Origin: Marsupella aquatica
Taxonomy: Eukaryota; Plantae; Marchantiophyta
DNA length: 64,000 nucleotides
NCBI GenBank assembly: GCA_973895155.1
Contig: OZ316893.1
Span: 14,786,645 to 14,850,644, forward strand
Direction: 5' to 3'
Positions 21,579 through 46,290 of the stretch are shown one piece after another. Below the pieces are notes generated by a model. It was not told where the DNA came from, did no database searches, and worked only from the letters and a program-made list of their open reading frames with translations. A program made the translations under genes and the position numbers. Position 1 is the first letter of the stretch. Each line of letters starts with the position of its first letter.

Positions 21579-21911
21579 TGTTGAGCATAGACGACATTCG
21601 TAACAACAAGCCCATGAACCATCCAACGCACAATAGTCGACACAGAGAGATACGTGGTTCACCTCCACATGAGGCTACCTTCACGGGAATACACAAGAGC
21701 TTTACTGCACTCTAGGCCGACCGGCCATACCAAGCATCCACAACACAAGCTCTCCCTATCTCTCAACTAGCTCTGTAACAATGAGCCTAGGTCTGGCATC
21801 AGCCCTGGCTATATACACAACAGCACTACCGCTAACATTAGCTAAGCCCTAACCCGAGTTAGACTAACTGTGGTTAGCTCATGAGTCACAAGACTAGAGC
21901 AATATCTAACA
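21579..21911 (-). repeat. LTR shared by two tandem Copia A units (5' LTR of the first, 3' LTR of the second)
   Basis: PBS on its left and PPT plus RNase H end on its right; differs from 99-442 by an 11-bp indel and a few substitutions. Confidence 0.9.
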
Positions 21912-22231
21912 AACTCCCCCTTGACTCTTGTCTTGGGGACTGGACTAAATGCTACCATATGGAATCCTCAGCGGGAAGTTCTAGACAATCACCAAACCAG
22001 GTCTCCCCCTAAAAACCACACGGGTTAACTAAGGGTTAACTAGAACTAAGCCGTAGCCATACAGGAATGAGTAATCCATATACAAATTATAGTCACACAT
22101 TGCTAAATAACTCTACTTGCACTACAACTGCAAAACCTGCAAAGTAGCACGGTGTCTTGAGAAACTCTCTAAAGGAATCACTTTGGTAAAGGCATCAACG
22201 GGATTGAGCTTTCCATCAATCTTGACTAGCT
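21912..22231 (-). mobile_element. Truncated second Copia A unit (PPT, 3' UTR, RNase H C-terminus)
   Basis: Repeats 443-759; LVKIDGKLNPVDAFTKVIPLESF; breaks at 22231. Confidence 0.9.
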
Positions 22232-24037
22232 TACGGTTTTGAGGCCGTACGGACGTCCGTACGGAAGGAGGTCCCGGCTTTGCAAGGGAAGGAGGAGGTA
22301 GTAGCACATACGAGGAAACCGTGATCCGTGTTTTGCAAAGCCGGGGGAAACGTGTTGTACGGACGAAATGAAGGTAGACGGTGCCCTGTAAAAACTTAAA
22401 CGATCATATCTTGGCCATTTGACCTCCATTTTGTGCACCGTTTATGGAGTCGTGATCAGGAAGAGGAGGGCTCCTCAGATATGTTTTCAGAAATGAAATC
22501 TGAGAAAATTTTAGTTTCGACAATTATAGGGGCCCCCTCCTTTTACAACGAACCGGTGGTGGCAAACAGGAGGATCGAGGCTCAAGCCAAGGCACCGTGA
22601 GTGAGGAGGAGGAGGACTGATGAGGAGACCAACTCACGGGGCTCAAGCCAAGGCACCATGAGTGAGGAGGAGGAGGACTGATGAGGAGACCAACTCACGG
22701 GGCTCAAGCCAAGGCACCGTGAGTGAGGAGGAGGAGGACTGATGAGGAGACCAACTCAAGGGGCTCAAGCCAAGGCACCGTGAGTGAGGAGGAGGAAGAC
22801 TGATGAGGAGACCAACTCACGGGGCTCAAGTCAGGGCACCGTGAGTGAGGAGGAGGAGGACTGATGAGGAGACCAACTCACGGGGCTCAAGCCAAGCACC
22901 GTGAGTGAGGAGGAGGAGGACTAGGGTAGCCATACGGACCTATCGTACGACTTCTGGATTTTAAATTTTTTTGGAAGGGTGCAATCACGGGCTTGTTGGA
23001 AAGAGCTTGCGGAGCTAATTCCAACAAGAGGCGGCGCTCCTCAAACGGAGCCAGGATGAGTAAGTTAGGGCCCGGCGAAGTTGGTAAGTAAATGATATTG
23101 AAACGGCCATAACTTGGTCGTTTGGTGTCCGTTTCGAGAGCGGTTTTGTGATTCATGATCAGGGGGAGTAGGGCTACCCAGGGGTGAGCTCAGAGGTGCA
23201 ATCGGAGTGGCACCTAGTTTCGGAAATTATGGGGTCCCTTGCATTTTTTGCGGTTCACGAAGTGATGTTGGGGCACCGTCGAAGGCACCATCGGTCCCAT
23301 TGTTAGATTAGGGTTTTAGGAGCATGTGTGTGCCGCATGCTTTAGAATTAGGGATTTTCTTGTGTGAAAGTTTATGCAGGGTTTTAGCGGCACCGCTAGG
23401 GTGGCCGACACCATGGTGATCCCGTGAGGGGTGCTTTGGTGTGTTTTTTCAGTATTTAGGGGGAGAGCCCCGGAGTAGTGAGGGGGGGAACTCAGTCTAG
23501 TGTTTGCTTAGGGAAGTTAGCTCATAGCCAGAAGAGGGAATCAAGCCAGAGTAGTGAGGTAGAGGTCTAGCACTTGCCCCAGTGAGGCAGTAGTTGGGCA
23601 GACGGCAGGAGGCCGGGTTCTCCTTGCAATGTGTTACAACATTTTGCCAAAAGATATGGATTTGGTTTGATTCCTCAAGTTTTGGTGTGGTGTTACCTTT
23701 TTTGGTTCATGATTGTGTTCTTTCCCCAAGAAGCGTCTAAGGAATCCTTGCACGGTTTGGTCAACCATGTGAGTAGGAGGGGTGGTGACAGCACTCCATC
23801 GACGACCAATAGGAGTGTGTGTGTGTGGCATAGTCCATGGGACTTGATCAAAAGCAAAGCGGCTAGTCAGTAGACTTGATCAAAAATTACATTTCCGGGA
23901 GCGGAAATAAACATACTCATCCTACATGCAATAGAATCCTAATAGCGTCCCTCCATGTTCCCGTCATACGATAACAAATGATTTTAGTATGAGTAAATAC
24001 GTATTTGTCATGTAAATCGTTTGATAAGCAGGTGACA
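22232..24037. mobile_element. Truncated inverted relative of the 6855-11210 LTR-like element
   Basis: About 22862-24037 is the reverse complement of about 6855-8010 and ends in ...gcaggtgaca. Confidence 0.85.
22579..22922. repeat. 61-bp tandem repeat, about 5.7 copies
   Basis: ctcaagcc-type unit starts at 22581, 22642, 22703, 22764, 22825 and 22886. Confidence 0.95.
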
Positions 24038-24354: not shown

Positions 24355-24404
24355 ATCAGCCTATGCATTAAAAGTGTATTTTCTTTTGTTCACAAATCAG
24401 TCTT

Positions 24405-24495
24405 GAAATGTACACTTTCATGTCCCCAAATGTACACTTTAAGAAACCCAAATATACACTTTTTGGTCCCTAAATAAACACTTTATAGGCCAAAT
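24405..24495. repeat. Left subterminal AAATGTACACTTT repeats of the Sola-like element
   Basis: 4 degenerate copies. Confidence 0.75.
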
Positions 24496-24759
24496 CATAT
24501 TATTATTATATTAATAAGTAATACATATTATATCATTTATTGATTCACAAAGAATAATAGGATAGAGATCATTATTTATTAATTCACAAAGAATAGTAGG
24601 ATAGAGATCATACTTATAAAAACATTTCAGCACAAAGAAACCCTTGAATATGTGTGAACAAAATGACATAACTCCAAATAGATTATAAAATAATATACAA
24701 TTATCTCCAAATTTACAATGTCTTTCTTCTATCTAAGGGGCTTAACATGAGTCAGATCT

Positions 24760-25839
24760 CTAAACAAAGTGCTCCTTACAATGTGAATTTGAGCACGTGC
24801 CCCTGTCTTCTTTACTATCTACCCTAGTGTCACGGTTGCAAGTCCCTTTATCTTTAGGGAGCTGAAACTTGGTGATGTTGTTCCTAATGGCTATAATCTC
24901 CCGCAAAAAGTGTCTGGGATTTTCTCTATGTGGACCTGAATAGTCCCTTCCTACAAATGCTTTAGCAAGTGACGTGACAAGTGCATCATCAAGTTCTGCC
25001 TCAAGACGTAAACTACATATACAATGCTTCACGTTCCAAGGAATCTCATTGCTATTGAGGTCCAACACACTATGCGTAAACTGTGACTTCCAAATTTTTG
25101 TTGCACATCTCTTACTAAGTTGATCATAAGTAATTTCATTTTTTACCTTGTCTCTCTTTATGTGCAATAGAGACCACAGTGGAGAGTTAAGAAGAAGATA
25201 ACATCTAATGTCACTTGCATGGGATAGTTTCTCAAGACAAGGCCAAAGAATTGTTAGAAGAAAATTATCTCCACCATTGGCATGCGTGTAGGGCACTAGA
25301 AATAGTCCGGTCATGCTTGGGTTGGCAAATGCCTTAAGGGGGGAGTCATCCACAAGGAGGGTGTTGGTTTCATCATATAGATTTCCAAATCCACTCCATA
25401 CCACCCGAAAATCCTTCAGTAGCACATTTGCCTTTCCGTTTGTAATGTCACGCCTTTGAATGCCTGTGTCAAAGGCTTCCACCTGTGTGAATACAAACTT
25501 AAGTTTCAACCGCTCCTCAGCAGTGAACATCAAGTTCAGCATTTTCACTGTTCGATGTACCCCAGCACATGTCCAAATTGCAACGTCAAATCGGTCAAAA
25601 ACCAACTTTAGAAACTCATGGAGCCCTGGCCTTTCTGTGTACATGCGACTAATTCCATTTTTTCTATCCCAATGCACTCCACTTGGGGTCACAACATTTC
25701 TGGATTTGCCCTTGCTTTGGAATTCAACTGAATCCCAAAGTATTTTGTTAAGATCCAAAATCAGCAATTTGCGCTTGATGGAACAAAGTCTTGGTTCTGC
25801 AAGTGCAACAAATACCAATCTTAGAGAAAAAAACCACAT
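24760..25839 (-). CDS. FCP1/SCP (NIF) family HAD-fold phosphatase-like protein, transposon cargo
   Basis: KRKLLILDLNKIL, ERPGLHEFL, FDVAIWT, LLKDF, NTLLVDDSP..A..NP; motif I is DLN rather than DxD; probable acceptor near 25799, so the true start is uncertain. Confidence 0.85.
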   Translation of the reverse strand: MWFFSLRLVFVALAEPRLCSIKRKLLILDLNKILWDSVEFQSKGKSRNVVTPSGVHWDRKNGISRMYTERPGLHEFLKLVFDRFDVAIWTCAGVHRTVKMLNLMFTAEERLKLKFVFTQVEAFDTGIQRRDITNGKANVLLKDFRVVWSGFGNLYDETNTLLVDDSPLKAFANPSMTGLFLVPYTHANGGDNFLLTILWPCLEKLSHASDIRCYLLLNSPLWSLLHIKRDKVKNEITYDQLSKRCATKIWKSQFTHSVLDLNSNEIPWNVKHCICSLRLEAELDDALVTSLAKAFVGRDYSGPHRENPRHFLREIIAIRNNITKFQLPKDKGTCNRDTRVDSKEDRGTCSNSHCKEHFV

Positions 25840-26012
25840 TTGAAGTTTGGATAGAGATCATCTCTGTCAACCCAACACAAGTGGCCAACCACAAAGAAAA
25901 TATATTTGCATACTGATCATATTCATTGAGAAACCGTAAAGAGGAGATGGATATTGATACTGATGCTCTAATTGTTAAACTTGAAGTATAATTATACAGA
26001 CTATATTATATC

Positions 26013-29000
26013 TGTTGCAAACCATATACTCCAACAATGTAATGAATCTTATTCATGTGTCCAATATATATACATGAGGTAGTTGAGTTAGATCTTGGTT
26101 AGATCTTAACTCGGGTTAAGATATCTAATCCTAGTTAGGGTATAACACTCCCCCTTGGGTGTTATAGTTTTTGATGAAATTATAACAACCAATCTAAGTT
26201 GCTATCAGTTAGATATCTTCTACCTATGTTATATTGTGAGATGATGGAGGTGCAACCTCATTAAAACCTTCCCTACTAACATCATGGAAGGAAAGAGTAT
26301 TGCCACCTTCCATCTCTTTTGTATGATCTATTTTGTATGTATGTAAGATCTAGAGTACAATACTGGTTTAATTGTGTTTTCTATGTTGTTAAGCTCCATA
26401 GAGGTTGTTGTCTCCATTGTCTTCATTGTAGTGTATGTGAGTTATTGATGTTCTTGAGAATGTCTTGATCTCCTTTGTGGTAGTATTGATGGTTTGCTTC
26501 TTCATAGTAAGTAGTCATTCATCTTCAATAGTGTTGTTGTAGAAAAATCCATTCTCCCCCTCAATGTTAGAATCCTGCATCAGTTTCTTAAGACTTCGCA
26601 TCCCTAAGAGGTGAGTTAGTGTTCTATGAGTAGATGGGGGTAGAGATTTTGTTAGGATGTCAGCCAGGTTCTTGTCTCCTGAAATCCATTGTATGTCAAT
26701 GTCTTTTCCTTGTTGTTCATGTGAGAAAAAGAACTTGGGTGCAATATGTTTTGTGCGTTCACCTTTTATAAATCCTGATTTGATTTGAGTGATGCATGAC
26801 ATATTGTCTTCAAATATAGTTGTAGGCATGGTTAAGCGTTGTTTACCTGTTTGAATAAGAATATGGTCTAGTACTTGCCGTAGCCATAAACATTCTCTAG
26901 TAGCCTCATAAAGGGCAATAATTTCTGAATGATTTGAAGAAGTTGTTGCAAGTGTTTGCTTAGTACTTCTCCAAGATATTGGTGTTGATCCCATTAAGAA
27001 TATATATCCTGTTTGAGATCTACCGTCATGTGGATCAGAAAGGTATCCCGCGTCAACATATCCTGTCAACTTATGGTTATCCTCATTAGGAAAATATAGG
27101 CCGAGGTCGGATGTACCATTAAGGTATCTGAAAATTCGTTTTACCCCGTTCCAATGTCTTATAGTGGGCTGAGAACTATGTCTCGCCAGTAGGTTGACAG
27201 AAAATGCTATGTCTGGTCTTGTTTGATTAGATAAAAACATAAGAGCACCGATAGCCGAAAGGTATGGCATATCTGAACCTAATATAGGTTCGAATTCTTC
27301 TCTTTTTCTAAACATATCCTTATCCTTATCAAGGGTACGGATGTCCATGGGGGATTTAACAGGCTTCAACATATTCATTCTGAATTGTTGTAATATTTTC
27401 TTTGTGTAAGTAGTTTGGTGTAAAAGAATGCCTTTTTCCAAATGTTCAAATTGTAGTCCAATGCAATAAGAAGTTCTGCCCATGTCTCTCATTTCAAATA
27501 CGCTTTTTAGCGTTTGCATTGACTCATTCATCATCTTTTTCGTACCAAGGAGGTTGAGGTCATCAACATATATAGCGATGATTATGAATTCAGGTCCTTC
27601 ATGCTTTATAAATAAGCAAGGAGCTATTTTGGAATTCTTATATCCCATGGATATCATTTGATTTTTAAATCTTTGGTACCATGTACGTCCACTCTGTTTG
27701 AGTCCATAAATGGAACTAAGGACTTGAACTGCATACCAAGTCTTTGCTCCGGTTGCCTTATGGTCCTTTCTAGGTTCTTTTAATGCAATTGCTTTAGAAG
27801 CATTGTGGAGTACCAATTTGTTCATATAGTCAAATGATTTTGCACTTTTATCATTGTGCATATGTGGATTATGTTTTGAATTTGCATGGAAGTTTACTCT
27901 CTCAATGAGTTCAGGCGGGGCTTCCATATAAATCACGTTGTCCAGTTTACCATAAAGGTAAGCAGTAACAACGTCCATTTGGTGCATTAACAGGTTGTTG
28001 TTTATGGCAAATGCTATCAAATAGCGGTATGTGGTGACGTCCATGACCGGTGAGTATGTCAGGTCATAGTCAGTTCCATAAACTTGTGTGTAGCCTTTAG
28101 CAACCAGCCTAGCTTTGGACCACTTAGAATTGGCGTCTATCACTACCAAGAAGTATCGAAATGGTCCACTTGGTGGGTCTATTGGTCCACATATGTCCGC
28201 ATGGAGTCTCTCAAGGAATGCGGGGATATGGTTTTCGGTTTTTGGGATGGAGGGGGCTGTAATCATCTTGCCCTGGGAGCAGGCGATGCATGGTTTTTGG
28301 AATGACCTTGGGTGACAGGTCTTTGGTATTCCTGTTGAGTTGTTGACTATCCTATGGAACATGCTGGTTCCTGGGTGTCCCAATCTCATGTGCCATGTCT
28401 CGGTGATATCTTTGGTTTCTACCCCTAGGTTGTAACTTTGGTTTTGGGTGATGTAGAACCCTGAAGGGTGGGGAGAGATGGTTTCTCTAATGATTATCCC
28501 TCCTTCTGAGTGTGATGTTAGTTGCAATACTTCTTGTGAGTTTTGGGTGTTTGTTTGGATATGGTAGTTGTTGGCTCTAATATCTTGGAAACTTAAAAGG
28601 TTCCTTCTTGCTTTGGGGGCATATATGGCAGATGGGCATCTGATTATAGTGCCTCCCAGAAGAGTTAAGGTAGCTCTTCCGTGGCCTTCTTCTATTTGGC
28701 TTTCTCCGGTTATGGTGATGATTTGCCTTTGTGAGGGGATAATTTCGTGGAAATATTTTCTATCTCGGAGGATAGTGTGTGATGTTGCGCTGTCTATGAT
28801 GCATACATCTATATCCTCTAGGTCCATTGGGGGGTCTACCATATGAATTTCTGGTATAATCTCAGGTGATTCAAGGTAAACTCCATGGGTTTCATATTTT
28901 GATCCATCCAAACTTTGCTTGTAGAGTTTCACAAGATGGGCTGGGGCATGGCATACCTTTTGGGTGTGACCTTTTGTACCGCACCTGAAGCATGTGATTG

Positions 29001-31244
29001 AGCTGTTTGAGTTGTTTCTTGGCTTCTCTTGGTAGTTGTTGCGGCCTCGTTCCCATGTGTTCCTTCCTTGGGAGTTGTTTCTTCCACGGCCCCTTCCTCG
29101 GTTGCTGAATCTGCTGGATCCTCCTCTGTAGGAGTAGTTTGATCGTCCTCGCATCATTCCTCTTCCCCTATATGAGCCTCTCCCCCTGAATTTACTTGTA
29201 TTTCTATCATAAGGTGTGGTCATGTTAGCTTCTTTTTGTTTCTCGTTTATAATTAAGTTCGTCTCGGTGGTAGCAGGTATGGGGAGTGTACCCGGGGGTC
29301 TATCCTTTGCATTTGTCATGAGTAGGATTGAGTTTTGTTCTGCCAAGAGCATGTGTGCTATTAATGCTGAGTATTTAGTGAATGCCATATTTCTATACTG
29401 GTTTGAGATTACTAAGTTTGTAGGGTGAAATGTTGCTAGTGTCTTTTCGATTTGTTGTTTATCATTCACTAGTTCACCGCACATTTGGAGTTCGTTCGAG
29501 ATGCGGAACATCTCGCTGTTGTATAAGTCTACCGTTTTGAAATCTTGCACTCTTAAGGTTACCCATGCTTGTAGCGCGTTTGGTAAGTTTATAGTTGTTA
29601 TGTGTTCAAATCTCTCTTTCAATGCATTCCATAGGAGCCTTGGGTTGTATATCGTCTTGTATTGTTGTTTTAATGGTTCTACTAATTGGTGTCTTAGTAG
29701 GACTAATGCTTGTGCCACCTGGTATTGATCCACCCCAATATCCGTATGTATGGTTTCTGGGATCCTCTTTGCCGTGAGGTTGACCTCCACGTCTATTGTC
29801 CAATCATTGTAGTTCTTCCCGTCAATTCTCAGTGCTGGGAATAACAGTTTCTCCATTGCCATCTTGGGGCTAATATGGGCTCGTGAGGTGTCGGGTGGGT
29901 ATAAGTTTCTATTGTGCACTTATTGTGGTTTGTAATCACTGGGAATGGAGTTTTGCACTTAGCTGTTTTTGTGTGGTATTTCTTCGATGGTAGACTTGTC
30001 CTTATGGTCTCGGGCAGATCGTCTTTGCTTGCTCACGGGGAGGAGCTCCTCCTTTGATTCGTCTTCTCGGTCTCCCGGTTCTCTTTCTGATTCTTCCTAG
30101 TTTCGTTCTTATGGGTCTCCATTCGAATCTGGTTCAATGGGGTCGATCGTTCTTACGCCGTCTTATCGTCTCTGGGTAATTCGTGAATCGTTTGCTGCTG
30201 TTCCGTGTTTCCTTCTTGTTTGTTTCGCTCGGGCCTGAGTGCAGATTGTGCTCCTGTCCTTATGAGTCCCCTTGCTTCCCTGCAGCTTTCTTTTGGTATC
30301 TACTTTTCTTCAGGTCTTGTCCCGGTATTGTTAGATTCTTTCTTCTTCGGTGGGGGGAATTGGGAATCGCTGCTTTTTGTTTTCTTCAATATAGCATTTC
30401 TGAATCTGGGGATTCGTGTGTTTTGATTTTGAGTAATTACGATCGGATCCTGGTCTGGGCCTCGATTTTCTTCTTTTCCCTTCCAACGAGTTCCAGCTCT
30501 TGTTTATGGCTGAGGCTATTCTGCGTTCCTCTCCAGGTCCTGATCTTTGCTTTACCTTCGGGTTCGCGCTCCCTCCTATTGATTTCTCAATTTCTCTTAT
30601 CTGTTTTTCAATTTCCCATGTTCGGGGTTACTCCCAGATCGGTCTCTCCTGCTCTGCTGTCAATGTCTGTGTGACATCAGGTTTCGATCTGCGCTGGCCT
30701 GTCCTCCTTTGCTTTCTTTACTTCGTTTCTTTGATTACGACATTCCTTCTTGTCTGCTTCAATTTTGTCTTTCTCTCTTGTTTCCTTTCGTTTCAATTCA
30801 TTTGCATTAGGCTGCGGTTGGCCCTTCGTGTTTCTGTTTTCCTTCTGTCTCTCAGGTCCTCTCCTATTATGTCAGTGTCCTTTTAATTCTCGCCTTTTGC
30901 TCGCTGGCTCACGAGATCTCTCAATGGTGGTCTATCGTTCTCAAGCCATAGACAAAACCGGGAGCCCATATTGTTCTACTTGAGGTTTCTATCGAGAAAT
31001 GGCCCTCAAATGTGGCCAAAAGTGCTCAACTTTTGGGAAAAACTCTTCGGATCTCCCCTTATGGTTTAGCACCTCTTCGTGAAAAAAATTTGCATTCGTG
31101 TTGATAACGTGTTGCAAACCATATACTCCAACAATGTAATGAATCTTATTCATGTGTCCAATATATATACATGAGGTAGTTGAGTTAGATCTTGGTTAGA
31201 TCTTAACTCGGGTTAAGATATCTAATCCTAGTTAGGGTATAACA
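26013..31244 (-). mobile_element. Ty1/Copia element, Bianca-like, recent insertion with an internal integrase deletion
   Basis: Identical 135-bp LTRs (26013-26147, 31110-31244); ATATC TSD; PPT at 26148; non-canonical PBS CGTTATCAACACG. Confidence 0.95.
26515..29919 (-). CDS. Copia gag-pol polyprotein (1134 aa) lacking the integrase core
   Basis: CFRCGTKGH zinc knuckle, IIDSATSH protease, WHMRLGHP, CIACSQGK, LHADICGP...IDANSKWS fused directly to RT KARLVAKGY; YVDD; KHIAPKFFFSHE. Confidence 0.9.
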   Translation of the reverse strand: MHNRNLYPPDTSRAHISPKMAMEKLLFPALRIDGKNYNDWTIDVEVNLTAKRIPETIHTDIGVDQYQVAQALVLLRHQLVEPLKQQYKTIYNPRLLWNALKERFEHITTINLPNALQAWVTLRVQDFKTVDLYNSEMFRISNELQMCGELVNDKQQIEKTLATFHPTNLVISNQYRNMAFTKYSALIAHMLLAEQNSILLMTNAKDRPPGTLPIPATTETNLIINEKQKEANMTTPYDRNTSKFRGRGSYRGRGMMRGRSNYSYRGGSSRFSNRGRGRGRNNSQGRNTWERGRNNYQEKPRNNSNSSITCFRCGTKGHTQKVCHAPAHLVKLYKQSLDGSKYETHGVYLESPEIIPEIHMVDPPMDLEDIDVCIIDSATSHTILRDRKYFHEIIPSQRQIITITGESQIEEGHGRATLTLLGGTIIRCPSAIYAPKARRNLLSFQDIRANNYHIQTNTQNSQEVLQLTSHSEGGIIIRETISPHPSGFYITQNQSYNLGVETKDITETWHMRLGHPGTSMFHRIVNNSTGIPKTCHPRSFQKPCIACSQGKMITAPSIPKTENHIPAFLERLHADICGPIDPPSGPFRYFLVVIDANSKWSKARLVAKGYTQVYGTDYDLTYSPVMDVTTYRYLIAFAINNNLLMHQMDVVTAYLYGKLDNVIYMEAPPELIERVNFHANSKHNPHMHNDKSAKSFDYMNKLVLHNASKAIALKEPRKDHKATGAKTWYAVQVLSSIYGLKQSGRTWYQRFKNQMISMGYKNSKIAPCLFIKHEGPEFIIIAIYVDDLNLLGTKKMMNESMQTLKSVFEMRDMGRTSYCIGLQFEHLEKGILLHQTTYTKKILQQFRMNMLKPVKSPMDIRTLDKDKDMFRKREEFEPILGSDMPYLSAIGALMFLSNQTRPDIAFSVNLLARHSSQPTIRHWNGVKRIFRYLNGTSDLGLYFPNEDNHKLTGYVDAGYLSDPHDGRSQTGYIFLMGSTPISWRSTKQTLATTSSNHSEIIALYEATRECLWLRQVLDHILIQTGKQRLTMPTTIFEDNMSCITQIKSGFIKGERTKHIAPKFFFSHEQQGKDIDIQWISGDKNLADILTKSLPPSTHRTLTHLLGMRSLKKLMQDSNIEGENGFFYNNTIEDE

Positions 31245-31290
31245 ATATCAAATTGATAAGGTACGTCACATCGCTCAATCTAGACCTTGG

Positions 31291-34200
31291 CTAACAATGC
31301 GATCCATATTCATCAATCAAGATATCATCACCGAGCTCTTGTTGGATCTCATAATTGACATCGGAGGTACTCTCCTCTATCCAATAAGGTGCAGACCAAA
31401 CCGGAGTTATCAATCCCAATTCTCCACTTCTATAAGTTGGATCTTTCTTGTGCTTTTTGTATGAGTCATTGTTCAAAATTGATTGAGCAGCATCCAATGC
31501 AACTTCAGTTCCTACATCGGGTCCACTTTTCCACACGTAACATCGACAATCATATTCAAGTGACTTATATCCAGTTGATCCTACTCTCTTCCCTTTCTTT
31601 TTTGAGAGTGGAAGGATAACAGGACTTCTTGATTGTGATCGAACAAACACCAATTTGTCATCAGAAGCGGAAAAGAGTGTATCGGGACAAATTGAAGCAC
31701 CTGCCTGGTTGTCAGCAGTCGTGGATGCACTTGCTTCATTCATAGGAATGTCAGCTATTTGGATGGGCTGCGGTCTCAATCCCAATGTGTCGAGTTCATT
31801 GGACTCACCATGCCTCTCCGCACCTTGATTGAGAAGGTTGTTTGAAGACAGTTTTTCAAACGTATCAACTTCCATCTCTTGTCCAGGCAATTGTGGATGG
31901 AGACCATCTCTATCCAAGTTATCATCATACTGGCCCTCGTTGGGTCCCATGGGGGCAACATCTATAATTGGTGAACTACAAGGTGCAGATCCAATAATCA
32001 TATCGTCTTCCACAAGGTCAATATTTTCACCCTCGCCAACTCGATCATCCAAATTCTTCACGTATGCCTCCTCCGATGGCCCATCGTCTTTGACTGATTG
32101 GTCAGCTCCATCTTCTTGATCACCATCTTCTTGATCACCATCTGATTCATCGTCAATAGCAACAGCGACAGAAGAGGGTTTCCAATGTCTAGAACTTCCA
32201 CCGACATAGCGATCATAACGATCTTTGATGGTGGGAACCTTCTCACAAAGGAACGAAGCATATGCTTCCACAAAATGTCTCTCATGTTGAGAGTCACAAT
32301 AAACAAAACATTCACGTTGAGAAAAAAAGGATGCCTTCATCACTTGACCGCTAGAGAAAAAGTCAAGAATCAAATCCCTCGGCTCGGACAGTGTTTGGAT
32401 GATCTTTTGGATCATCCGTGTGGGTTTGGCGTGAGGATTCACCCACCCACCCCGAGCGCCGACCGTCTCAAATTGAGGTGCCATGTGCAGAAGTATTGCC
32501 GCCTCTTCTGGGGTCATCATATTTCTTAGATCTTCATGTAATGACTCCTCGTCCGCGTCCTTTGCCTTTCCCTTTCCCTTGACCTTCTCAACCATGAAAT
32601 CAGTATCCTTTTCACCGTACACCCATTTTGGCTTCATCTGGTTGGGCTTGAACACTTCATCCCAGCTGACGTTCTCTTTGCAAGAAATTCCCGCAAAGAT
32701 AACTTCTTCTATTCCTCCCTTCCAACATGAGTCGTGAGGGTGAGGTTGATCATCTCGGTAATAACTCCCATACTCAATGTGAATAGTCAAAGTTTTTGAA
32801 TGTCCTAATTTACGAAGAGCGCTTAGGACATTCAGTACAAGGTAACCCGGATGGACAGTTATCATCACAACAATGGTGGGATTCTATGGTAGCTCTACTA
32901 TGTATTGGAAGAGTACCAAAATCTCTGCTTCGGTCCACTCCTTCTGTTGAAGTCGGCTAAAATCAACAATTGCAAGAGGGCATGTTGGAGATTGTTCTTC
33001 CAACGACTCCGGATTGACTGTCTTCATTAGGTTGTTACTAAAAAATGTGACCCACGGTTGGGTCCGAGAACTTATCCCCCCACCAAACTTCTGACAGTAA
33101 ATATCTGACGCATCACCAATGTCATTGGCAATATCTCACTCTCCTTTGTATGATTAGATTTCAATAAATTTGTCAACCATACTTCACCAGCCGCTCTTCG
33201 GCACCTGTTCAACTCCGACTCGGCACCTAACAATGGGAGGACCTCAATTACTTTAACCCAATCACTATCTGCTAGGAAGTTTTTCGGATCCTTCTTGAAG
33301 TAGTAATCTCCAATAAGAGACTTTAGTTTGATCAATATCTTCACCTCCTTTGCAAAGTCCTCCATTGCTGGAACATCTGACTTATTTGTCGGATCCTTCT
33401 TCAATAAAACCTGACCTGACTTCACCTTGTTCAAAATTCTGGTCAAATCTCTACTTGATATTTCACCATCAAAACAATGAAACATTGCAACCGTTATACC
33501 CTTTTTGGACCTTTTGTTTCCCTGTGTACTAGCTCCATCAGGAAGATGTCCATCAATCCACATCTGGCACACTAACCGCCAGAGCTCGAAAAGATCATTC
33601 TCGGCAAAGAGCAACCGATATACATTTTTCAAGTTTTTTCTCCCCATGGTCATCCTTGCCAATGCCAAATAATCCTACAGTCAAAATTAGGGGAAAATAA
33701 GTTATCTACAATCAATGAGATTTGACAACAAACTATCACTTGAATTGCTTGTTGGACAGAGACCATCTCCATCCAAGTCATAACTAAAAGTAAAAGGAAG
33801 AGAAATCTTTGGAATGGACGATGACACTCTTGGACAGAGATCATCTCCATCCAAGTTATAACCAAAAGTAAAAGGAAGAGAAATCTCTGGAATGGACGAT
33901 GACACTCTTGGACAGAGATCATCTCCATCCAAGTCATAACCAAAGTAGAAGGAAGAGAAATCTCTAGAATGGACGATCACACTCTTGGACAAAGACCATC
34001 TCCATCCAAGTCATAACCAAAAGTAGAAGGAAGAGAAATCTCTAGAATGGACGATGACACTCTTGGATAGAGACCATCTCCATCCAAGTCATAACCAGAA
34101 ATATATTGAACTAAAATCAATGTAATGGACGGTCACACTCTTGGACAGAGACCATCTCTGTCCAAACAAGAAAAGTGTTTCTCACCTGAAATTTTTGATT

Positions 34201-35802
34201 CTCTTGGGCGTTTGACTTGTTGTCCCCGTGCTTTGGCTTTCTTGGTCCTCCGCATTCAAGGAATTGTTTCCTTGCATGAACAATTGTATCTTTGAAGCAC
34301 GATTGAAACACCATCGTCGAATTGATGGCATTTGATCTCATTGAGTGCTCAACCAATATAGCCGATGGTGTAAGGTCTGACAATAATCTAGACTTCCTAT
34401 ATTTTAACTTTTTTGCCAACATTGTGAGCTTGGCATCAGTTTTGGCCCATTCGAGAACCCACTTGGCCGCCCTAGCCGAATGTTGCCCACTGATGGCAAA
34501 GAAACCAATCTCGCCTTTCTTCACTCCTGCAAGAAAGTCTTTGCGGTCGTTCTCCGTGCTGTCAAAATGGAGCAACTTTCTAAGCTTCAGACTATAAGGA
34601 AGGAGGTCCGCGATGTGAGGTTCATGTCCGGGGTTTTTGACCATGGATTTGGCTATGTGCTTCACATGGGTACTACTGAGCATCCTGTAACATAATCTTG
34701 CAGGTGCAGGCACAATTTTCTCCACTAGAATAGAAAACAGTTCATTTATCCCAAAAGTATAGTACTGCTCTATTCTCTGGAGAACATCATTTCCTTCTAA
34801 GACTTTCTTCTCCTCAGGGGCATCAAGTTTGTCTCCCTCATCTTCTGGGAGCATCTGTACGTCCGCAGGGGTTGACCGCAAAAGAGACTTGTCAATTTTC
34901 TGTTTCTTCGCTACTGGCTTCTTCTCGGGTTCCTTCGGCAATGTCTCAATTTTCTCGCGACCCTTCCTCTCTCTTAGTCTTCGCTTCCCTACCACTTGTT
35001 TGGTGCTTGTCCCAGTCGTTGTTCCTGCAGTCCCTGTTGTTGTCTCCTGAGATATTTTTCTAGGTTTGGGAACTTCGTTGGGAACTTCTTTGTTAACAAC
35101 TACTGGAAGCTCGTTCACCACTACTGGTGCAACATTTGTAGGCTTGGGTAATGATTCCACCCACTTTTTTGCATTATCCATCGCAAACTCCTCTACAAAT
35201 GCAATTTGCTTGTCAAGGCAAACACCTGATTCCGCAGATAGGAATCCTGCCTTGTCAAGCAAATTATTTAAAATCCATGTCACCGGAAATGTATAATTCC
35301 CTTGGTGTTTATGGATATTCAGCTTCACATATTGAAACCCATACATGATGTCAAGTGGAAGAATCCCCTTCACTCCAGCAATCACCTTTTGAGTTGAATA
35401 CGACTTAGGGAAAAAGCCCATTGCCATCACGCCAAGTTCTCCAACAGCAGACCACTCAACATTGAACTCTGAAGAATACGCCTTTGATGGTAGATGTAGC
35501 TTAACCCATCGTATCCTTTCATGGAGCTCAAGAATGATGGAAACAAACCCTCTTCCTTCAATTCCAATGAAGACTACAAGTCCGAGTACAAGAGTCTCTT
35601 GATCTTTTGTTCTGACCTTTATGCACAAAATGGGATCCCGTCTCTCTGACGTGATAAGGAAATCAAAATCAACTCTAGAGAACTCAAGGCCCCAACAAAA
35701 ATCTGGTTTGCTCTGCTCCAACAAGACTCCCTCGGAGCAGTCTGATTCTGAAATTGCTGGTTTCAATCCATTTAGATCGCTCCCTGCAATAGTCCCATCC
35801 AT
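31291..35802 (-). pseudogene. Two-exon ~1330-aa cargo gene: ParB/Srx-like domain plus beta-class N4/N6 DNA-methyltransferase-like domain; one frameshift (near 33100) and one TAG (near 32885)
   Basis: Exon 1 35802-34186 (RMLSSTHVKHIAKSM...FFAISGQHSARA); phase-0 GT-AG intron 34185-33675; exon 2 has LAIVDFS and NPHAKPTRMIQKIIQTLSEPRDLILDFFSSGQ, resembling HPxxKPxxL...S.PGDLVLDPFxGSG. Confidence 0.65.
33752..34165. repeat. 78-bp tandem repeat (5-6 copies) in the intron, each carrying the element's palindrome
   Basis: ttgga(c/t)a... at 33752, 33830, 33908, 33985, 34063 and 34141. Confidence 0.9.
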
Positions 35803-35860
35803 GCATATTAGTTTGGAAAATCATAATTTGTAATCGACAAAGATGAGGTTCTCTCACAGT

Positions 35861-36400
35861 TTGGACAGAGATGATCCCTATCCAATTGGACAGGGATGAT
35901 CTCTATCCTCTACTTGGATAGGGATGATCTCTGTCCAATTTGTAACAAAGATAATCTTTGTTCGATCAAAGGATACTGACAATCTTTATTAGGAATTGGA
36001 CAGGGATGATCTCTATCCTCTACTTGGATAGGGATGATCTCTATCCTCTACTTGGATAGAGATGATCTCTGTCCAATTCCTAATAAAGATCATCTTTGTT
36101 CGATCAGAGGATACTGACGATCTTTATTAGGAATTGGACAGGGATCATCTCTATCCTCTACTTGGATAGGGATCATCTCTATCCAATTAAAAATAAAGAT
36201 CCTCAACATCCTCTGATAGGACAGTTTTGATCCTCTGGTTGGACATCCTCTATCGTCATTTTGGAAATAGATGATCCCTATCCAATTGGACAGGGATGAT
36301 CTCTGTCCTCAATTTGGACAGAGATCATCTCTATCCAATTCCTAATAAAGATCACTATCTTCTACTTGGACTCTACTTGGACAGGGATGATCTCTGTCCA
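35861..36400. repeat. Cluster of GGAYAGRGAT-N-ATCYCTRTCC palindromes upstream of the ParB/MTase-like gene
   Basis: For example ttggacagagatgatccctatccaa; more than 10 copies. Confidence 0.9.
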
Positions 36401-37442
36401 CTGCACAAATATTCAACTTATTACCGAGATACTTTCTTGGATTGAGCAATTGGAAGGCTCTGGAATCCTCGAGGGCCGTGTCTACCACATCCTCAATGGA
36501 GGAGAGGTCTATCTCCTCTGTTGGTTCAACGACCAAAGACACATGAATAGGTCTAGATGGATCCATCTTGTGACACGTGGAGGATCATAGAGCGTTAGAT
36601 CTAGGGCAATTAACATGGCGGCTAGGGCAGAAACTCTAGTGTGAAGGCGGAGGTGGAGTGGAGCCTAGGGAGACTGGAAGCGAATGAGGCGGAAGAGCGG
36701 AGGCGCAGGAGCGGAGGTGCAGGAGCGGAGGTGCAGGAGCGGAGGAGCGAAGAAGAGGAGGAGGGAAGAAGAATGAGGCCCAAGTGGGACCTCTTGCCTC
36801 CTTTACCCCCCCCACACCAAGGCGAGGCAAGGACGACTCAACACGTGGGAGGCCGAGCTGCAAACCCTAAACGCAAGGCTGCGTAAATTGTGCCGCCCGA
36901 CTTGGTTGTGTGGCGTGGGTGACCTAATCCACTCGACCCTAAACTCTGCCACTGCTTAAGGCTGATCACGCATCGCCTTATCCGTAAGAGTGATCTTGAA
37001 TAAATGGTATAAGAGACTTGGGCTGCTCCGGTTGGTCCTCATTTGGTATTTTCATTTCTAGATTTTCATTCAGTCTCTCAACCAGGTCCGTTCATTACGG
37101 AGCCCCATTGAGCCACTCTTGTTTTCTAGACAGAACATTTAGTTTTAATTTCTTCCACACCCCTGAAGCATTTAGTTTACCAGCTTATTGAGAACTACCC
37201 CTTCAACAAAGTATTTTATTACTTGGTTTGACAACATAAACTAAGTGAGTTTTGTGTTCAAGAATCATTTCCATTACAGGTAACTTTCAACTTAATTATA
37301 GAATATTCCATTGGTATCAAATTTAGGAATTGTATATCTAAGTTACTTGAGGTTGGGGTATCCAGCCCAACTCATGATTGGGATCATCTCAATCGAACCT
37401 TTCTTTGGTCAAACATTAAATTAGTGTGTAGAGGTTAATTGT

Positions 37443-38430
37443 CCGTACAAGGGTCATCCCTGTTAGCTGTTTTGATAGGGATCATCCCTATGTGCTGTTT
37501 GGATAAGAATGATGTTTGTCCACCGTTTGGATAGAGATGATCCCTGTCCACCGTTTGGATGGGGATGATCCCTGTCCGGCTTTTGGATAAGAATGATGTC
37601 TGTCCACCGTTTGGATAGAGATGATCCCTGTCCACCGTTTGGATAGGGATGATCTTTGTGCACCGTTTGGATGGGGATGATCCCTGTCCACCGTTTGGAT
37701 AGGGATGATCTCTGTCCACCATTTGGATGGGGATGATCCCTGTCCGGCTTTTGGATAGAGATGATCCCTGTCCACCATTTGGATAGGGATGATCCCTGTC
37801 CACCATTTGGATAGCGATGATCCCTGTCCACCATTTGGATAGAGATGATCCCTGTCCACCGTTTGGATGGGGATGATCTTTGTCCATCGTTTGGATGGGG
37901 ATGATCCCTGACCGGCTTTTGGATAGAGATGATCCCTGTCCACCATTTGGATGGGGATGATCCCTGTCCGCCATTTGGATAGAGATGATCCCTGTCCACC
38001 GTTTGGATGGGGATGATCCCTGTCCGGCTTTTGGATAGAGATGATCCCTATCCGCCATTTGGATGGGGATGATCCCTGTCCGCCATTTGGATAGGGATGA
38101 TCCCTGTCCGCCGTTTGAGGTATTTGCTTTATGGGACCCCAATATGAAAGGTTTTACTTTCAGATAGGACCGTTGAGTGATCCTAAGTGATCCGGACCTT
38201 GAATCATCCATGTCTATTGTTTGGACAGTGATAGACCCTATCCGCCATTTGGACAAGGATCAGCTGTGTCCGCCATTTGGACAATGACAGACCCTATCCA
38301 CCGTTCTGACAGGGATCATCCCTGTCCGCCATTTATAGGGATCATCTATGTCCATTGTTTGGACAGTGATAGAACCTATCTGCCGTCTGGACAGGGATCA
38401 TCCCTATCCAACGTCTAAATAGGGATCAGG
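37443..38430. repeat. 28-bp tandem array (about 30-35 units) with a palindromic core, in the probable first intron of the transposase gene
   Basis: Unit ccgtttggatagagatgatccctgtcca; putative donor at 37280, acceptor at 38583-38584. Confidence 0.95.
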
Positions 38431-38584
38431 GATCTTAGGGCTAGATAAGGATTGTTTAGGGACCTATTATTTTGCTTGATGGGGATGATCCCTATTTGCG
38501 CACTGTCCTTGGATAGGGTTCACACCTATCTGCTTCCTAGTTGGGACCATTGTTAACTAATACCTTACATTTCAAATTGTGCAG

Positions 38585-41500
38585 GTGAACACGTTGTAGG
38601 AATGACCGGAATATTTTTGAGAGGAGACAATGTGATATTGACAATTGGTGGTTACGATGTTGCAAGCAGGACAGTTCAAAAAATCAACCCGCAAGATAGT
38701 GTTCAAAAGATATTGTTGAGAGAGAATCGAATGGGCGTTCTCATTGAAAAAGTTTTTGACCGAACCACAAAACTACCATTTCCAATGCCTCGGGCAGAAA
38801 ACCTTTTTGATGCCATTGATTCTTGCGTTATTTGGGATTTGTCTTGCGCATGTCTATCAACGATAACAAATTCTCAAAAATGCATTAGTGTAGGTAGTTG
38901 TTCAAATCGACCGGAGAGTAATTTGGAAAAAAATCCAATTGTAGAGGAGGACTCATCGACCACTCTGAGGCAAGGGGATGAGGTTGAAATGTTCATATTT
39001 GGGTGTTGTGTAGCCCTTGGAGTTGTTTTCAATACAAATCCAATGGAAAGATGTCACAACATTTTACTTGGTGAATCACGGATCAGTGTGAGGGTCACTG
39101 ATGTCATTCATGGGAGTAGGGTTTTACCTTACAAACACAGCGGGGCTGAAACAATTGACGAGCCAAAAGACTCATGGGTTCTCTGGGATGTGGCAGGTGT
39201 CCGAAGTAGAAAGAGTTTCTCAAAGAAGGATGCGGGCGATGATATCAACATAGAGCGGAGTTTTGTTGCAGAGTCTCCCTCAGCTGAAATTTCTAAAAAT
39301 AATTGTGACTATTTCCAACGGTCAAATTGGATGTCAGAGTTGGTCGAACTATACATCGGTTCAGATCGAACCAATAGGGTTGCCACGGGGACCATCACTG
39401 TGCCTCAAGAAATGGCGGCGGTTGACGATGAAATCCTTGGTGAGGACCATGTAGGGATTGTTGTGAAAGATGTGGTGGAATCACAATACTTTCCCAATTT
39501 CCATAGGGGAGTAATTACTTTGGTTTGGTGGCGGATTGATTCAACAAAACTACTTGCAAACGGGAAATTTTTGTCGGACATTTTGGTTGAAGGTTCAGAG
39601 AGGATGGAGACGGTGGATAGGGATGATCTCTATCCAAATGTAAATGATAGGGGAATGCCGCGCACAAGGCCATACAATTTCAACAAGAGGACTCATGTAG
39701 ATCCGATTGAAAAGAAGAGAAGGTTGTTGGAAACCAAGGCAGTTTCAAAAACAACGGAAGCTTCGATTGATAAAATTAAAAGAGAGAATTGTTGCAAGCA
39801 GAAATGTTGTCTGACTATGCCAAGAGAAGACAGAAGATATCCGGATAGAATTTCACGGGATGTCTAGCGAGTCAAAATCATCACACATTTTCAACCTCTT
39901 CCAATACAGAGAAGATGATGTTCGTGATAAGGGGCACCATGTTCTCAAAGGTATGGTCGTATGTAGACATGCATTTGCAATCATCCATGGCTTTAGCCAC
40001 ACGAAATATTATGATTACAAAAGGAGATATGTGGAGGGTTGCAAAATTGGGTTCCATGGAAACACGGGCTCCATGAAAACAAGGTCAAATACCTTGCATG
40101 CACGAGCTCTGTTGGAGGATTTTTTGACTCGAAATGCAGAGCCCATGCCTCATATACCTTATGCTGGGGCTCATGGGACAGACTCCATTGAGTATCGTCT
40201 TCCAGCATGTTACAAGAAGTTGGAGATTTTGGAAGATGTGAGAACAAAGATGAAGGAAGAGGGGCTTCCTCCAGTTACAGAGAATACTCTGTACAAGATT
40301 TGGAGATAATCATTCGCAAACTTCAGTTTCCATAAAGATGGTGCATTTGCCAAGTGTACTCTTTATTGTGAATACAAAGATAGTTTGATGCGAGAAAGAA
40401 GGAAAACAGAGCGTGCTGAAATTGAAGAAAAATGAGCGCAACATCTTCAATTCGTGAGCAGATGTCACGTAGATATGTTTACTATATTCATCAAGTGATG
40501 GCTAAGCAACATCCAGGGGAATATCTTTGCATCATTCACGACAAGATGGATCAATCAAAGACTTGGATTCCAAAAATGGTCAGTACTCCTAAATCACTTT
40601 CGGGTCATGGGATGCCACTACCTATTGCTCTCACAGGGATGTTGACCCACGGAAGGGATCCAGGAGTCTATGCACACTTTAGTGTCACTGGCCTTTGGCC
40701 AGAAGATGCTGATTTCACGGTGACATCCTTGGCTAAGTGTCTTCGAGACCTTGAAGAGTACAATGGAGACAAGACAAGTGACATGTTGGATGGCCTTTAT
40801 TTGGAACCTCATAGACCTTTCTTTCAAGCCCTTCTTGACTTTGATGCATTTTTTAAGGGATATTTGGAACCAAAGAGTATTCCAATGAATAGGTATATTG
40901 GTTCTGAAGATGCAGCCGAGAGTCAGACGGAGACGGTCTCCACCCAACATGGTGAGGATCAAGGAGGGGACATGCATGGGGAACAAGGCAGTCCATCTTT
41001 CAAGCCCTTGCCAAGGCACCTAACACTGCAAATGGATAACTCAGCAAAGGATAACAAAAACCAGACTGTCATGGCATTTTGTAGTGAGCTTGTGAGTAGA
41101 GGAGTATTTGAAACTATTCAAATGTCTTTTCTAATGGTTGGTCATACACACGAAGATGTTGATGCACTCTTTTCGAAGGTATCATATCAAGTTCAGCACA
41201 AGGAAGTTGCAACTCTCCTTGCTCTTATGGCAGAGGTTTGGGAATGTGAGAGCATTCATCTAGTTCCCAGATTGATACAAGAAGTTGCATCTTACAAAGA
41301 ATATCTTCAAACTTTCAAAGTTAAAGATATTCATAGATCTGACAACAAATTCTCTTCTTTTACCTAGTGGAGAGCCCTTAGCTAAATTCATTGGAGAGAT
41401 ACACAAAAAATCTGAAGAGATTATCCCATTTCTTAACAAGTACCTTGATTTTTTGAGAAGGAGTTGCACTGATGAGACATCTATAGCATATAAGGAAAGA

Positions 41501-42229
41501 TTTCCTCTTGTGAAATATTGGGAGAGAATTGTGGAGTTGTTGACAAATGGGCTTGCACTAGAAGGGGAGGGAAGTACTCAATTTCCCTTGAAAAACGGAT
41601 TTTGGCCTAAGACTAACCACGGCACTGGTTACAAGGTCAACCAACCGAAACAAAGTGGTCTTCCAAGTGAAGATGAGGAGAATGCGGAGATGACGGCTCG
41701 TCAAAATGAGGTCTTGGAAGAGATGGAAGATCAAGCAGCACCATTTGTTGGATCTCGAGCTGAGAGAGAACAAGGACGGTGGATTCCCCTACAGGATATT
41801 CGTGAAGGGAACTTTGTATTTCTTTGACCTGAGGATGACTGGGAGAATAAAAATGGTGGAGGTCATTTTTGGTTGGTGAGAGCTTTGGGTTCGGTGGACC
41901 CTCAGCATGAAGTCCCAACTACATCTCCAACAAACCCTCCTATGCCTCAACAATATGCTCCAATGTTTCCAGTCGAATGGTGGAGGCCTAAACACTCTAA
42001 ACTTGATGTGACTGAGAGTGCACGGTATCTAAACTACTTCATGTCCACTAAGACATGGGAACGAGATCCAGGGTTTGGTGAGAACGCTCAACATTGGCAA
42101 TATGCAAATTCTGCAATGTACGGTTTTAAATCTGGCATGAAAGAAGGAAACATGGCGGGCAGAGGTTTGAAGATTCCTCGAAATGTTCTACAAACTGTCC
42201 AAAGTTATCTCCAAAGGATGGACAAGTAG
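38585..42229 (+). pseudogene. Sola-like DDD transposase with three N-terminal Tnp1/TnpA(Transposase_23)-like repeats; several frameshifts and stops
   Basis: CCKQKC, VCRHAF..IHG, IIHDKMDQ, LTLQMDNSAKDNKN, FLMVGHTHEDVDALFS; ORFs 38602-39867, 39860-40309, 40432-41367, 41285-41827 and 41873-42229. Confidence 0.8.
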
Positions 42230-42514
42230 ACTTAGTTGTTACTTGCGAAGCTATAATAATTAAATTAATTTAGATAGTTACTTACCTAGTTTTTATGTAA
42301 ATAGTCAACACTCATTCAAACATAGTAACTTACGTACTAGTTATTTACTATTCTAATAGTTTTAATGTGAGACCATGTCATTGAGTGTTAGTTATACTAT
42401 CTCCTCATTTTCTAAATTTTTGATCATTATGAATATGAATGTTTGCTTTTTTGCATAATTAAAAATATTTTTCTATTCATTCCTTTCTTTTAAATGATTA
42501 TAATAAGATTTGGT

Positions 42515-42830
42515 AGGAAAATGTACACTTTTTAGGCCAAATGTACACTTTGTTGCACTCAAAGTTACACTTTCTAGACAAACTGCACTTAAATGTACAC
42601 TTTTTAAGCCAAATGTATGTTTCTTTCACTCAAATGTACATTTTTAGAGCCAAATGTACCTATTTTGATGTTCAAATATACACTTTTTATTGCCCAAATG
42701 TACACTCTTTAGGCCAATTGTACACTTTTCTATCCCCAAATGTACACTTTTCATTGGCCAAATGTACACTTTTTCTCGCCCAAAAGTACACTTTTCATTG
42801 CCCAAATGTACATAAATCAAATAATAATAC
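42515..42830. repeat. Right subterminal CCAAATGTACACTTT repeats (~20-bp period)
   Basis: About 14 degenerate copies before the right TIR. Confidence 0.85.
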
Positions 42831-42855
42831 ACTTTTAATGAATAGGCTGACATTG

Positions 42856-45075: not shown

Positions 45076-45997
45076 TCTGACCCTTTGATGAGAGCCAAAC
45101 AAGCAATATATATTAACTACATGTAAGATTTCTACATAATCATCTCTGAATATGACTTGACCCACCTGATCTGGCCACATTCCAAACAATAATTTTTCTA
45201 TTGCATTTGGTTCAAGAGATTATTAGCAACTCATAATTGTCTCATTATCAAAGTGGGTATCAAAGCAAATTTGGAGCAAAACACATCTCAAATACCTTAT
45301 AGCAGTTTCATCCCCTACTAAACTTGCAAATACTTAGGGGCTTCTTGTATGGGAAGGGTCCTCTCTTTTATGGCCCTTAGCACTCCTCCATTTATTATCA
45401 CAAAAAGGTGAATTGCCTTTCTCCACAAAATCTGCTACACTAACATGTGAAGTGCATAAGCTTTTGCTTGTCCACTATTGTTGTTTCCACAACCAGAATT
45501 CATAACACTAATTATAATTCACAGAGGCCCAGTTAAACAAAATGTGTAAATACTCTCTTTTGTTTCATTCAAAATTCAAAGGTTGGAACATGAAGGGCCA
45601 AACAGTTTATGGCCTTTGCCCTTGGATCTCCTCATATGTTGTAGTCGAGCCTACCTCAAGTGGGGGTTGAGGCTTGAAAGTCTCATTCACTCGTACATTG
45701 TCATTTCGGTTAACTTAAAGGAGTATTTTCTGAGGACCTCGCAAATGCAAGATGGTTCTTAAGGCCTAGAAAACACGGCCCTTTACATAATTAACTGGTG
45801 GTGACTCCTGAGTGACCGCAAGACTTTCCCCTGAGTGAGGTAGTCTTGACTACACTAATTTAGGATCTAGAAGGGCAAGGCATAGAAACTTTCTGGCCCT
45901 TTACTGTCTTGACCTTTCATATTCAAATAAAACAACCACAAGCAGGTAGTAAATTTTGCGTAACCTCAATTCCTTGGATAGTTCCCTGTATACTATT

Positions 45998-46290
45998 ATC
46001 AATCTATTCATTAAAAGTGAATTATTATTCAATTTATGAACATTTGGGTAACAAAAAGTGTACATTTGGCTTTCAAAAAGTGTACAATTGGACAAGAAAT
46101 AAACATGTTGGCCATCAGATGTACCACCATGTTCATCCTTGTAAATGAACTAGGACTAGACTACTTTTAGGGGTAAAGATCAATTTTGTGCCCTCAAGTT
46201 TACAATTGACCATTTAGGTGTAAAGTATTGTACTACAATGTACCTTTTGGGGTTTTAAAATGTACATTTGGAGACCAAAAAATGAATATT
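45998..46290 (-). mobile_element. Decayed inverted fragment of the Sola-like right end (TIR plus subterminal repeats)
   Basis: atcaatctattcattaaaagtgaattattattcaatttatgaacatttggg resembles the reverse complement of 42800-42851. Confidence 0.7.

Follow-up and report, generated by a model that had tools for sequence, protein, structure and literature searches.

Several described systems bear on the locus reported here. In the VANDAL transposons, VANC21 binds motifs that have been amplified as tandem repeats in the introns and intergenic DNA of the element and removes methylation (PMC5735166). Bacterial-type amino-methyltransferases have also been found in eukaryotes: MpDN4MT1 of Marchantia and N4CMT of a bdelloid rotifer are described as N4-methylcytosine (4mC) writers with an SPPY motif (10.1101/2021.02.12.428880, PMC10406627). 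MpDN4MT1 keeps TSPPY, and the available part of the preprint does not mention ParB (10.1101/2021.02.12.428880). A Dam fused to ParB and helix-turn-helix (HTH) domains is reported from chlorophytes, together with inactive DIRS1 methyltransferases (PMC4738411). Here we describe a Sola-like DNA transposon in a stretch of 64,000 nucleotides (the window) from the liverwort Marsupella aquatica (assembly GCA_973895155.1, contig OZ316893.1, positions 14,786,645 to 14,850,644). It carries an accessory gene in which a predicted ParB-like domain is joined to a predicted beta-class amino-methyltransferase domain whose active site has been altered.

The spliced ParB-like/methyltransferase-like fusion is a family trait. 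The window gene and the Calypogeia gene model P0003 share their splice position, the matches of four further homologs (P0001, P0052, P0053 and P0055) end at the exon junction, and a distant DNA copy (L001, 99-208) has a GT-AG intron with identical position and phase. Two homologs, P0047 (1009 amino acids) and P0049 (1219 amino acids), carry all domains uninterrupted in a single chain; the matches of P0047 have E=2e-34 for exon 1 and E=5e-31 for the beginning of exon 2. These two intron-less sequences may be derived from transcripts. An earlier note on this DNA, made without database searches, had proposed a fusion protein and its exon borders: the fusion is borne out by the single chains and by the intron shared with P0003 and L001, and the borders (GT donor, AG acceptor, phase 0) and all named motifs were confirmed in the sequence. 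The gene family is real and conserved.

The window copy itself is dead. Exon 2 contains the frameshift (near 33105) and the premature TAG (32886-32884) that had already been pointed out, and the spliced reading comes to about 1,334 codons if four bases are restored at the frameshift. Four extra bases are indeed found at 33102-33106 in related contigs from four sequencing runs. Position 32886 has another base in 1818/1818, 7465/7549 and 3206/3206 of the covering depth in three runs, among the contigs listed (the figures add up the depths of contigs and do not count copies; the fourth run has no coverage there). Both lesions are private to the window copy.

The second exon is predicted to contain a beta-class amino-methyltransferase fold, that is, a permuted Rossmann fold in which the catalytic segment is N-terminal to the segment that binds S-adenosylmethionine (SAM). 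The likeness is beyond chance. An N6_N4_Mtase-like SAM-binding segment had been read from the letters alone, and Pfam N6_N4_Mtase does match it (E=1.6e-4, below the curated cut-off), as it does 11 of 22 family members, with E up to 0.1; the family profile matches M.RsrI with E=2.7e-5. A model of the domain from a 40-row alignment (pLDDT 86, pTM 0.86) retrieves CcrM with Foldseek (E=2.3e-10), and a VIA structure comparison with CcrM gives Z 18.2 and a root-mean-square deviation of 3.4 over 215 residues. The top matches are all beta-class enzymes: the next structures are BceJIV (Z 16.6), RsrI (16.0), PvuII (15.5) and N4CMT (15.4), and MTA1/METTL3 follow near 12.

At the place of the catalytic DPPY the window copy reads DFSR, within the segment LAIVDFSR singled out earlier, and the substitution is family-wide. 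The family has D-[FL]-x-R, with Asp and Arg in 17/17 rows; no row has kept the two prolines or the stacking aromatic, and a PPY-like motif ([DNS]PP[YFW]) occurs in none of the 62 collected proteins (the near-duplicates P0046, P0014 and P0059 were left out of the motif counts, and P0041 was discarded as a repeat artefact). D-x-x-R is probably the counterpart of DPPY, judging from the modelled strand that ends at D38 and from the whole-domain match. We rejected decay of this copy as the source of the degenerate motifs, the change in the catalytic motif being family-wide. In active enzymes, Asp and Pro of DPPY form hydrogen bonds with the target amine, and Tyr lies stacked on the base (PMC10406627). 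Because the residues that hold and stack the target base are replaced, standard methyl transfer by this family appears unlikely. The earlier note had left a choice between a divergent writer and a pseudo-enzyme; the latter is favoured, since PPY is missing in every homolog.

Motif I had also been considered unusual. Its spelling in the window copy is indeed FFSSG, which is atypical: the family spelling is DFFSGG, with G in 30/34 rows. The motif is one residue shorter than in M.RsrI (a gap in the profile alignment). The Lys of motif X (35/36 rows) and the D or N of motif III (16/16 rows) are retained, and the acid of motif II has given way to a small residue, 18/30 rows having an Asp at the next position; the motif numbers other than I and IV are those that we presume to apply to this domain. 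Identity among homologs within the domain is 20-59%, yet the former active site (D38, R41, K217, F239, F240, G243) is its best-conserved part. The residues of the SAM pocket thus seem to be under selection while the catalytic loop has been replaced.

A fold of the ParB/Srx superfamily is predicted in exon 1 by way of homolog P0003, which is 59% identical to this exon. When the Atlas model of P0003 is used as query, the feature search has DUF3723 as its nearest match (0.96, 188 shared). Of 10 structure rows, seven are clusters with ParB_N, DndB or DUF3723, and an eighth bears the name ParB (query-based TM 0.46-0.64 over 207-266 residues, the aligned parts being under the tool's naming bar). The alignments extend into the helical part and match clusters with ParB_N plus HTH, and the helical domain of exon 2 is possibly the DNA-binding part. 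The window protein has no ParB family match in Pfam, the outcome of the HMMER check that had been suggested. The fold model of its ParB part has a pLDDT of 40 and gave an uninformative fold search (best Z 3.7), and searches of PDB, PHROGs and NCBIfam with this part gave no match.

Profile comparisons point to DndB. Pfam DndB matches the ParB-like domain weakly in 2/10 proteins (E 0.03 and 0.05; 13.8 and 13.0 bits against a cut-off of 29.1), and DUF3723 is absent from the Pfam matches listed for the 10 proteins. With hhalign, a profile of 11 sequences scores 28.5 over 77 columns against 13 DndB/DGQHR proteins (60 block shuffles reach no more than 18.8) and 19.75 against 20 canonical ParBs, where the shuffled maximum is 19.6 and there is no signal. 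The place of GxxR reads GQHS in 11/11 sequences, a GQH (DndB/DGQHR-like) type with Ser for the arginine. The ParB/Srx signature claimed earlier is therefore supported as a fold, via P0003 and the DndB profile, while the motif is of the GQH type and lacks its arginine. The GxxR arginine of the ParB P motif is required for nucleoside triphosphate (NTP) binding (10.1101/2025.10.10.680097), and because it is replaced in 11/11 sequences, NTP switching by the domain seems doubtful. When the NTP-binding residues of a phage ParB are mutated, it still activates a DNA-modifying enzyme (PMC13229309).

The P0003 Atlas search also groups fungal DUF3723 with ParB/DndB folds. DUF3723 is a conserved auxiliary gene of the fungal Starship elements (10.1101/2021.12.13.472469, 10.1101/2025.11.25.690456), and the available text of these two sources makes no mention of ParB.

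The transposon setting put forward in the earlier note is borne out by terminal inverted repeats (TIRs) identical at 23/25 positions, a 4-bp target duplication (ATTG) at their edges and a DUF7869 transposase. Another 4-bp match, GTCC, is found 4 bp outside the first, and 2/13 boundary shifts tried gave a 4-bp match. There are AAATGTACACTTT subterminal repeats near both ends, and four sequencing runs contain many contigs related to the element. The transposase gene is divergent to the ParB-like/methyltransferase-like gene; its product matches DUF7869 with E=4e-40 and has three acidic motifs. DUF7869 may be equivalent to the Sola transposase. We liken the element to Sola because it combines a 4-bp duplication with a putative DDD-type transposase, both of them features of Sola, which is reported from a moss (PMC10741241).

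Table 1. Coordinates of the transposon, its genes, motifs and repeats in the window
Feature	Position	Strand	Description
Sola-like TIR DNA transposon	24355..42851	.	13.3 kb without the nested copia; TIRs 23/25 identical
Second accessory gene, NIF/FCP1-like phosphatase fold	24760..25857	-	Pfam E=1.2e-15; first motif DLNKI
Nested copia-type long terminal repeat (LTR) retrotransposon	26013..31244	-	Identical 135-bp LTRs; 5-bp duplication ATATC
Two-exon ParB-like/methyltransferase-like gene	35802-34186 + 33674-31291	-	
Exon 1	34186..35802	-	539 codons: N-terminal domain, Lys-rich low-complexity linker, predicted ParB/Srx-superfamily domain
Predicted ParB/Srx-superfamily domain of exon 1	about 34830-34186	-	CYR, SGQHS and E-x-S-x-R-x-N motifs
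Motif CYRMLS	34692-34675	-	Exon 1
Motif ISGQHS	34494-34477	-	Exon 1
Intron	33675..34185	-	511 nt, phase 0, GT-AG (AG at 33675); six 78-bp repeats with one 25-bp palindrome apiece
Exon 2, helical domain	33076..33674	-	Frameshift near 33102-33106 in window copy
Exon 2, predicted beta-class amino-methyltransferase fold	32220..33075	-	DFSR at DPPY place, NPHAKP, DFFSSGQ
Motif DFSR	32964-32953	-	Exon 2
Motif NPHAKP	32439-32422	-	Exon 2
Motif DFFSSGQ	32364-32344	-	Exon 2
Exon 2, acidic linker and conserved C-terminal domain	31291..32219	-	C-terminal domain about 90 residues, ending in DEYGS
Palindrome cluster upstream of gene	35861..36401	.	12 copies of TTGGAYAGRGAT[GC]ATCYCTRTCCAA
28-bp tandem array upstream of transposase	37423..38411	.	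23 palindrome copies
Broken transposase gene	38557..42229	+	N-terminal part weak Transposase_23; DUF7869 core (HDKMD, QMDN, GHTHEDVD)

The element contains 44 copies (at up to 4 mismatches) of a 25-bp palindrome, TTGGAYAGRGAT[GC]ATCYCTRTCCAA, and none was found in the nested copia, in the remaining window or in 20 shuffles. The intron has six copies, the region upstream of the gene 12 and the pre-transposase array 23 (41/44 in all), and three stand singly. Repeats of different build (28, 78 and 110-138 bp) have the palindrome as their common core; 38/44 copies have a central GATC and 35/44 are located between the two divergent start regions. Since its half-sites vary independently of each other, a protein site fits better than a hairpin, and hairpin repeats were rejected as an explanation.

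The three single copies occur at 31893 (within coding sequence of the ParB-like/methyltransferase-like gene), at 39613 (within that of the N-terminal part of the transposase) and at 25847 (in the NIF-like gene).

We tentatively favour a reading, whose probability we would place a little short of even, in which the gene product is a self-recognising, non-catalytic DNA-binding protein that acts on the palindromes of the element and keeps the element active. ParB proteins and beta-class enzymes dimerise, and the product would do likewise. The dimer would be loaded on the palindromes of its own intron, of the upstream region and of the array before the transposase, which we infer to be its targets. 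The helical domain would read the palindrome sequence, and the retained pocket would accommodate SAM or a flipped base but transfer no methyl group. As a result the element would stay transcribed and protected against cytosine methylation by the host, as VANDAL elements are by VANC.

A number of points weigh against this reading. Binding, dimerisation and anti-silencing are steps that we infer, the folds beneath them are predictions, and what is read directly is the splicing pattern, the motifs and the palindrome layout. The linkage of the gene to a transposase is known from this one element. The palindrome consensus was derived from these very repeats, and copies in tandem do not count as separate events; the palindromes could instead be bound by the transposase; and the intron of the distant copy L001 (111 nt) has no repeat array like that of the window intron. 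The position of D38 at DPPY would follow from a model strand and the match of the whole domain, and conservation of the former active site fits an enzyme too. Finally, CpG depletion is only slightly lower in the element (0.39-0.62, compared with 0.27 and 0.29 in two other elements), but that of the nested copia is similar (0.47), and the measure does not discriminate.

It is rather doubtful that the system goes further and constitutes a eukaryotic 'ParB-parS'-like module of bryophyte Sola-like transposons. Such a module would load on the palindrome arrays, spread, and shield the element or write a bacterial-type mark via D-x-x-R, and the DUF3723 of Starship elements would be a self-recognition factor of the same sort.

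Transposon-encoded counter-silencing is represented by few systems (VANC, TET/JBP, SET and DAM-LTR). If the favoured reading is true, the present gene would be one more, built from two bacterial modules, and it would be present in the group of plants that already has an active bacterial 4mC writer. The candidate binding site makes self-recognition directly testable. The possible link to the ParB fold also suggests what DUF3723, an obscure auxiliary gene of Starship elements, might do. A methyltransferase fold apparently selected with an invariant D-x-x-R would be either a new reader or a new chemistry.

A rather unlikely alternative is that the product is an architectural or dosage cofactor, which binds the palindromes or the AAATGTACACTTT repeats to bridge or compact the element, or represses its own and the transposase promoters, with no anti-silencing. 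This would agree with the location of most palindromes between the divergent starts and with DndB/DGQHR as nearest profile match, DndB being described as repressing transcription (that of the dnd operon; 10.1101/2025.10.10.680097). DUF3723, the best feature match, is likewise a conserved Starship auxiliary gene. However, such a role leaves the retained methyltransferase fold and its conserved pocket unexplained, and many such transposons, of 2-9 kb, manage without this gene (PMC10741241).

Less probable again is a rewired active enzyme, in which D-x-x-R would allow an exocyclic amine to be methylated (4mC or N6-methyladenine (6mA) in DNA, or RNA), so that the sites of the element are marked. 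The invariant Asp at the catalytic position, the persistence of the SAM-pocket motifs (motif X, the DFFSGG majority, motif III) and the GATC at the centre of most palindromes would all suit such an enzyme. Precedents exist in retrotransposons with adenine methyltransferases (10.64898/2026.05.21.726589) and in the ParB-N6N4-methyltransferase fusions that are common in bacteria and phages (10.1101/2025.10.10.680097). Against it are the family-wide loss of the prolines and stacking aromatic, the one-residue gap in motif I relative to M.RsrI and the altered motif II. That the gene is a useless passenger, either a captured host gene or a decayed relic of a phage-type ParB-methylase, is very improbable. 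The damage to the window copy and the fragmentary state of many homologs in databases would suit it, but the lesions are restricted to this copy, several dispersed copies occur in Riccia, and long selection is indicated by substituted motifs that stay invariant across deep divergence, by the conservation of the intron and by full-length homologs without interruptions.

The window contains other features of interest. Two further domains of the gene are conserved and have no family match: the N-terminal domain (35802-35200), common to P0001 and P0004, and the C-terminal DEYGS domain (31600-31291), conserved in 12 sequences. The second accessory gene of the element encodes a NIF-like protein. The first NIF/FCP1 motif has the consensus DxDxT but reads DLNKI here, so this protein too could be a pseudo-enzyme, with the tail of RNA polymerase II as a possible target. 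The nested copia is not part of the ParB-like/methyltransferase-like system: it is inserted 46 bp past the stop of the gene, with an empty site in sequencing run X3. It is very young, and by Pfam the integrase core appears to be missing from its 1134-amino-acid open reading frame (ORF). A third end like the right end of the element (45997-46300) points to a neighbouring related or truncated copy. Further away, an ORF with a SET domain (12393-13064, minus strand; E=8.5e-6) lies near a CACTA-type Transposase_21/DUF4218 ORF (5509-6546, minus strand), possibly another transposon with a chromatin enzyme. An inverted repeat pair of about 1 kb (6893-7910 and 22959-24000, 15-17 kb apart) and direct repeats (99-759 and 21579-22231) belong to other elements.

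With phmmer, 40 hits were obtained over 1.84 billion representatives. Among the 34 proteins looked up, those with a named organism are liverwort proteins: three are from Calypogeia fissa and two from Riccia sorocarpa, to which one cluster member also belongs. Prokaryote genomes gave short weak matches alone, in 31/301 and 10/301 (41/602), and no donor was found among these 602 genomes and the viral and phage records searched. Searches of contigs from viruses and from prokaryotes, of phage records (one match there, E=7, was judged to be noise) and of 251 genomes gave no close relatives, and a metagenome scan gave one 1.8-kb locus. We did not find the family or the element described in the literature searched; Repbase, subscription journals and supplements (notably that of PMC4738411) could hold the family.

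Compared with Sola as described, the element has the same TIRs and 4-bp duplication and, as far as its motifs suggest, the same DDD type of transposase, but adds two accessory genes. VANC resembles the gene in being an accessory gene encoded by its element, with a short motif tandemly amplified in intron and intergenic DNA. However, VANDAL is Mutator-like and thus another transposon superfamily, the motif here is a long palindrome, no Pfam match to the VANC family was reported, and the function proposed for the family is drawn by analogy. DndB/DGQHR proteins share the GQH-type motif and are the best profile match, and fungal DUF3723 (TM 0.53-0.56) also rides large mobile elements; in contrast to both, the family has Ser for the GQHR arginine and falls short of the Pfam cut-offs, and the rows of those proteins include no methyltransferase fusion.

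MpDN4MT1 and N4CMT represent, as the family probably does, a bacterial-type beta-class fold in a eukaryote, and the named relatives of the family are liverwort proteins too. The tie to these two enzymes suggested earlier was not upheld: they have the SPPY that the family lacks, N4CMT and PvuII rank below CcrM in structure, and no MpDN4MT1-type relative was found among the 62 collected proteins. The beta-class enzymes CcrM, M.RsrI, M.MboIIA and M.PvuII are alike in whole-domain fold and order of motifs, whereas the family has D-x-x-R for DPPY/SPPY, a short motif I and 10-16% identity to them, and is fused, spliced and transposon-borne. The bacterial and phage ParB-N6N4-methyltransferase fusions have the same order of domains, ParB followed by methyltransferase; compared with these, the family alters both signature motifs and adds a helical domain of about 200 residues as well as N- and C-terminal domains.

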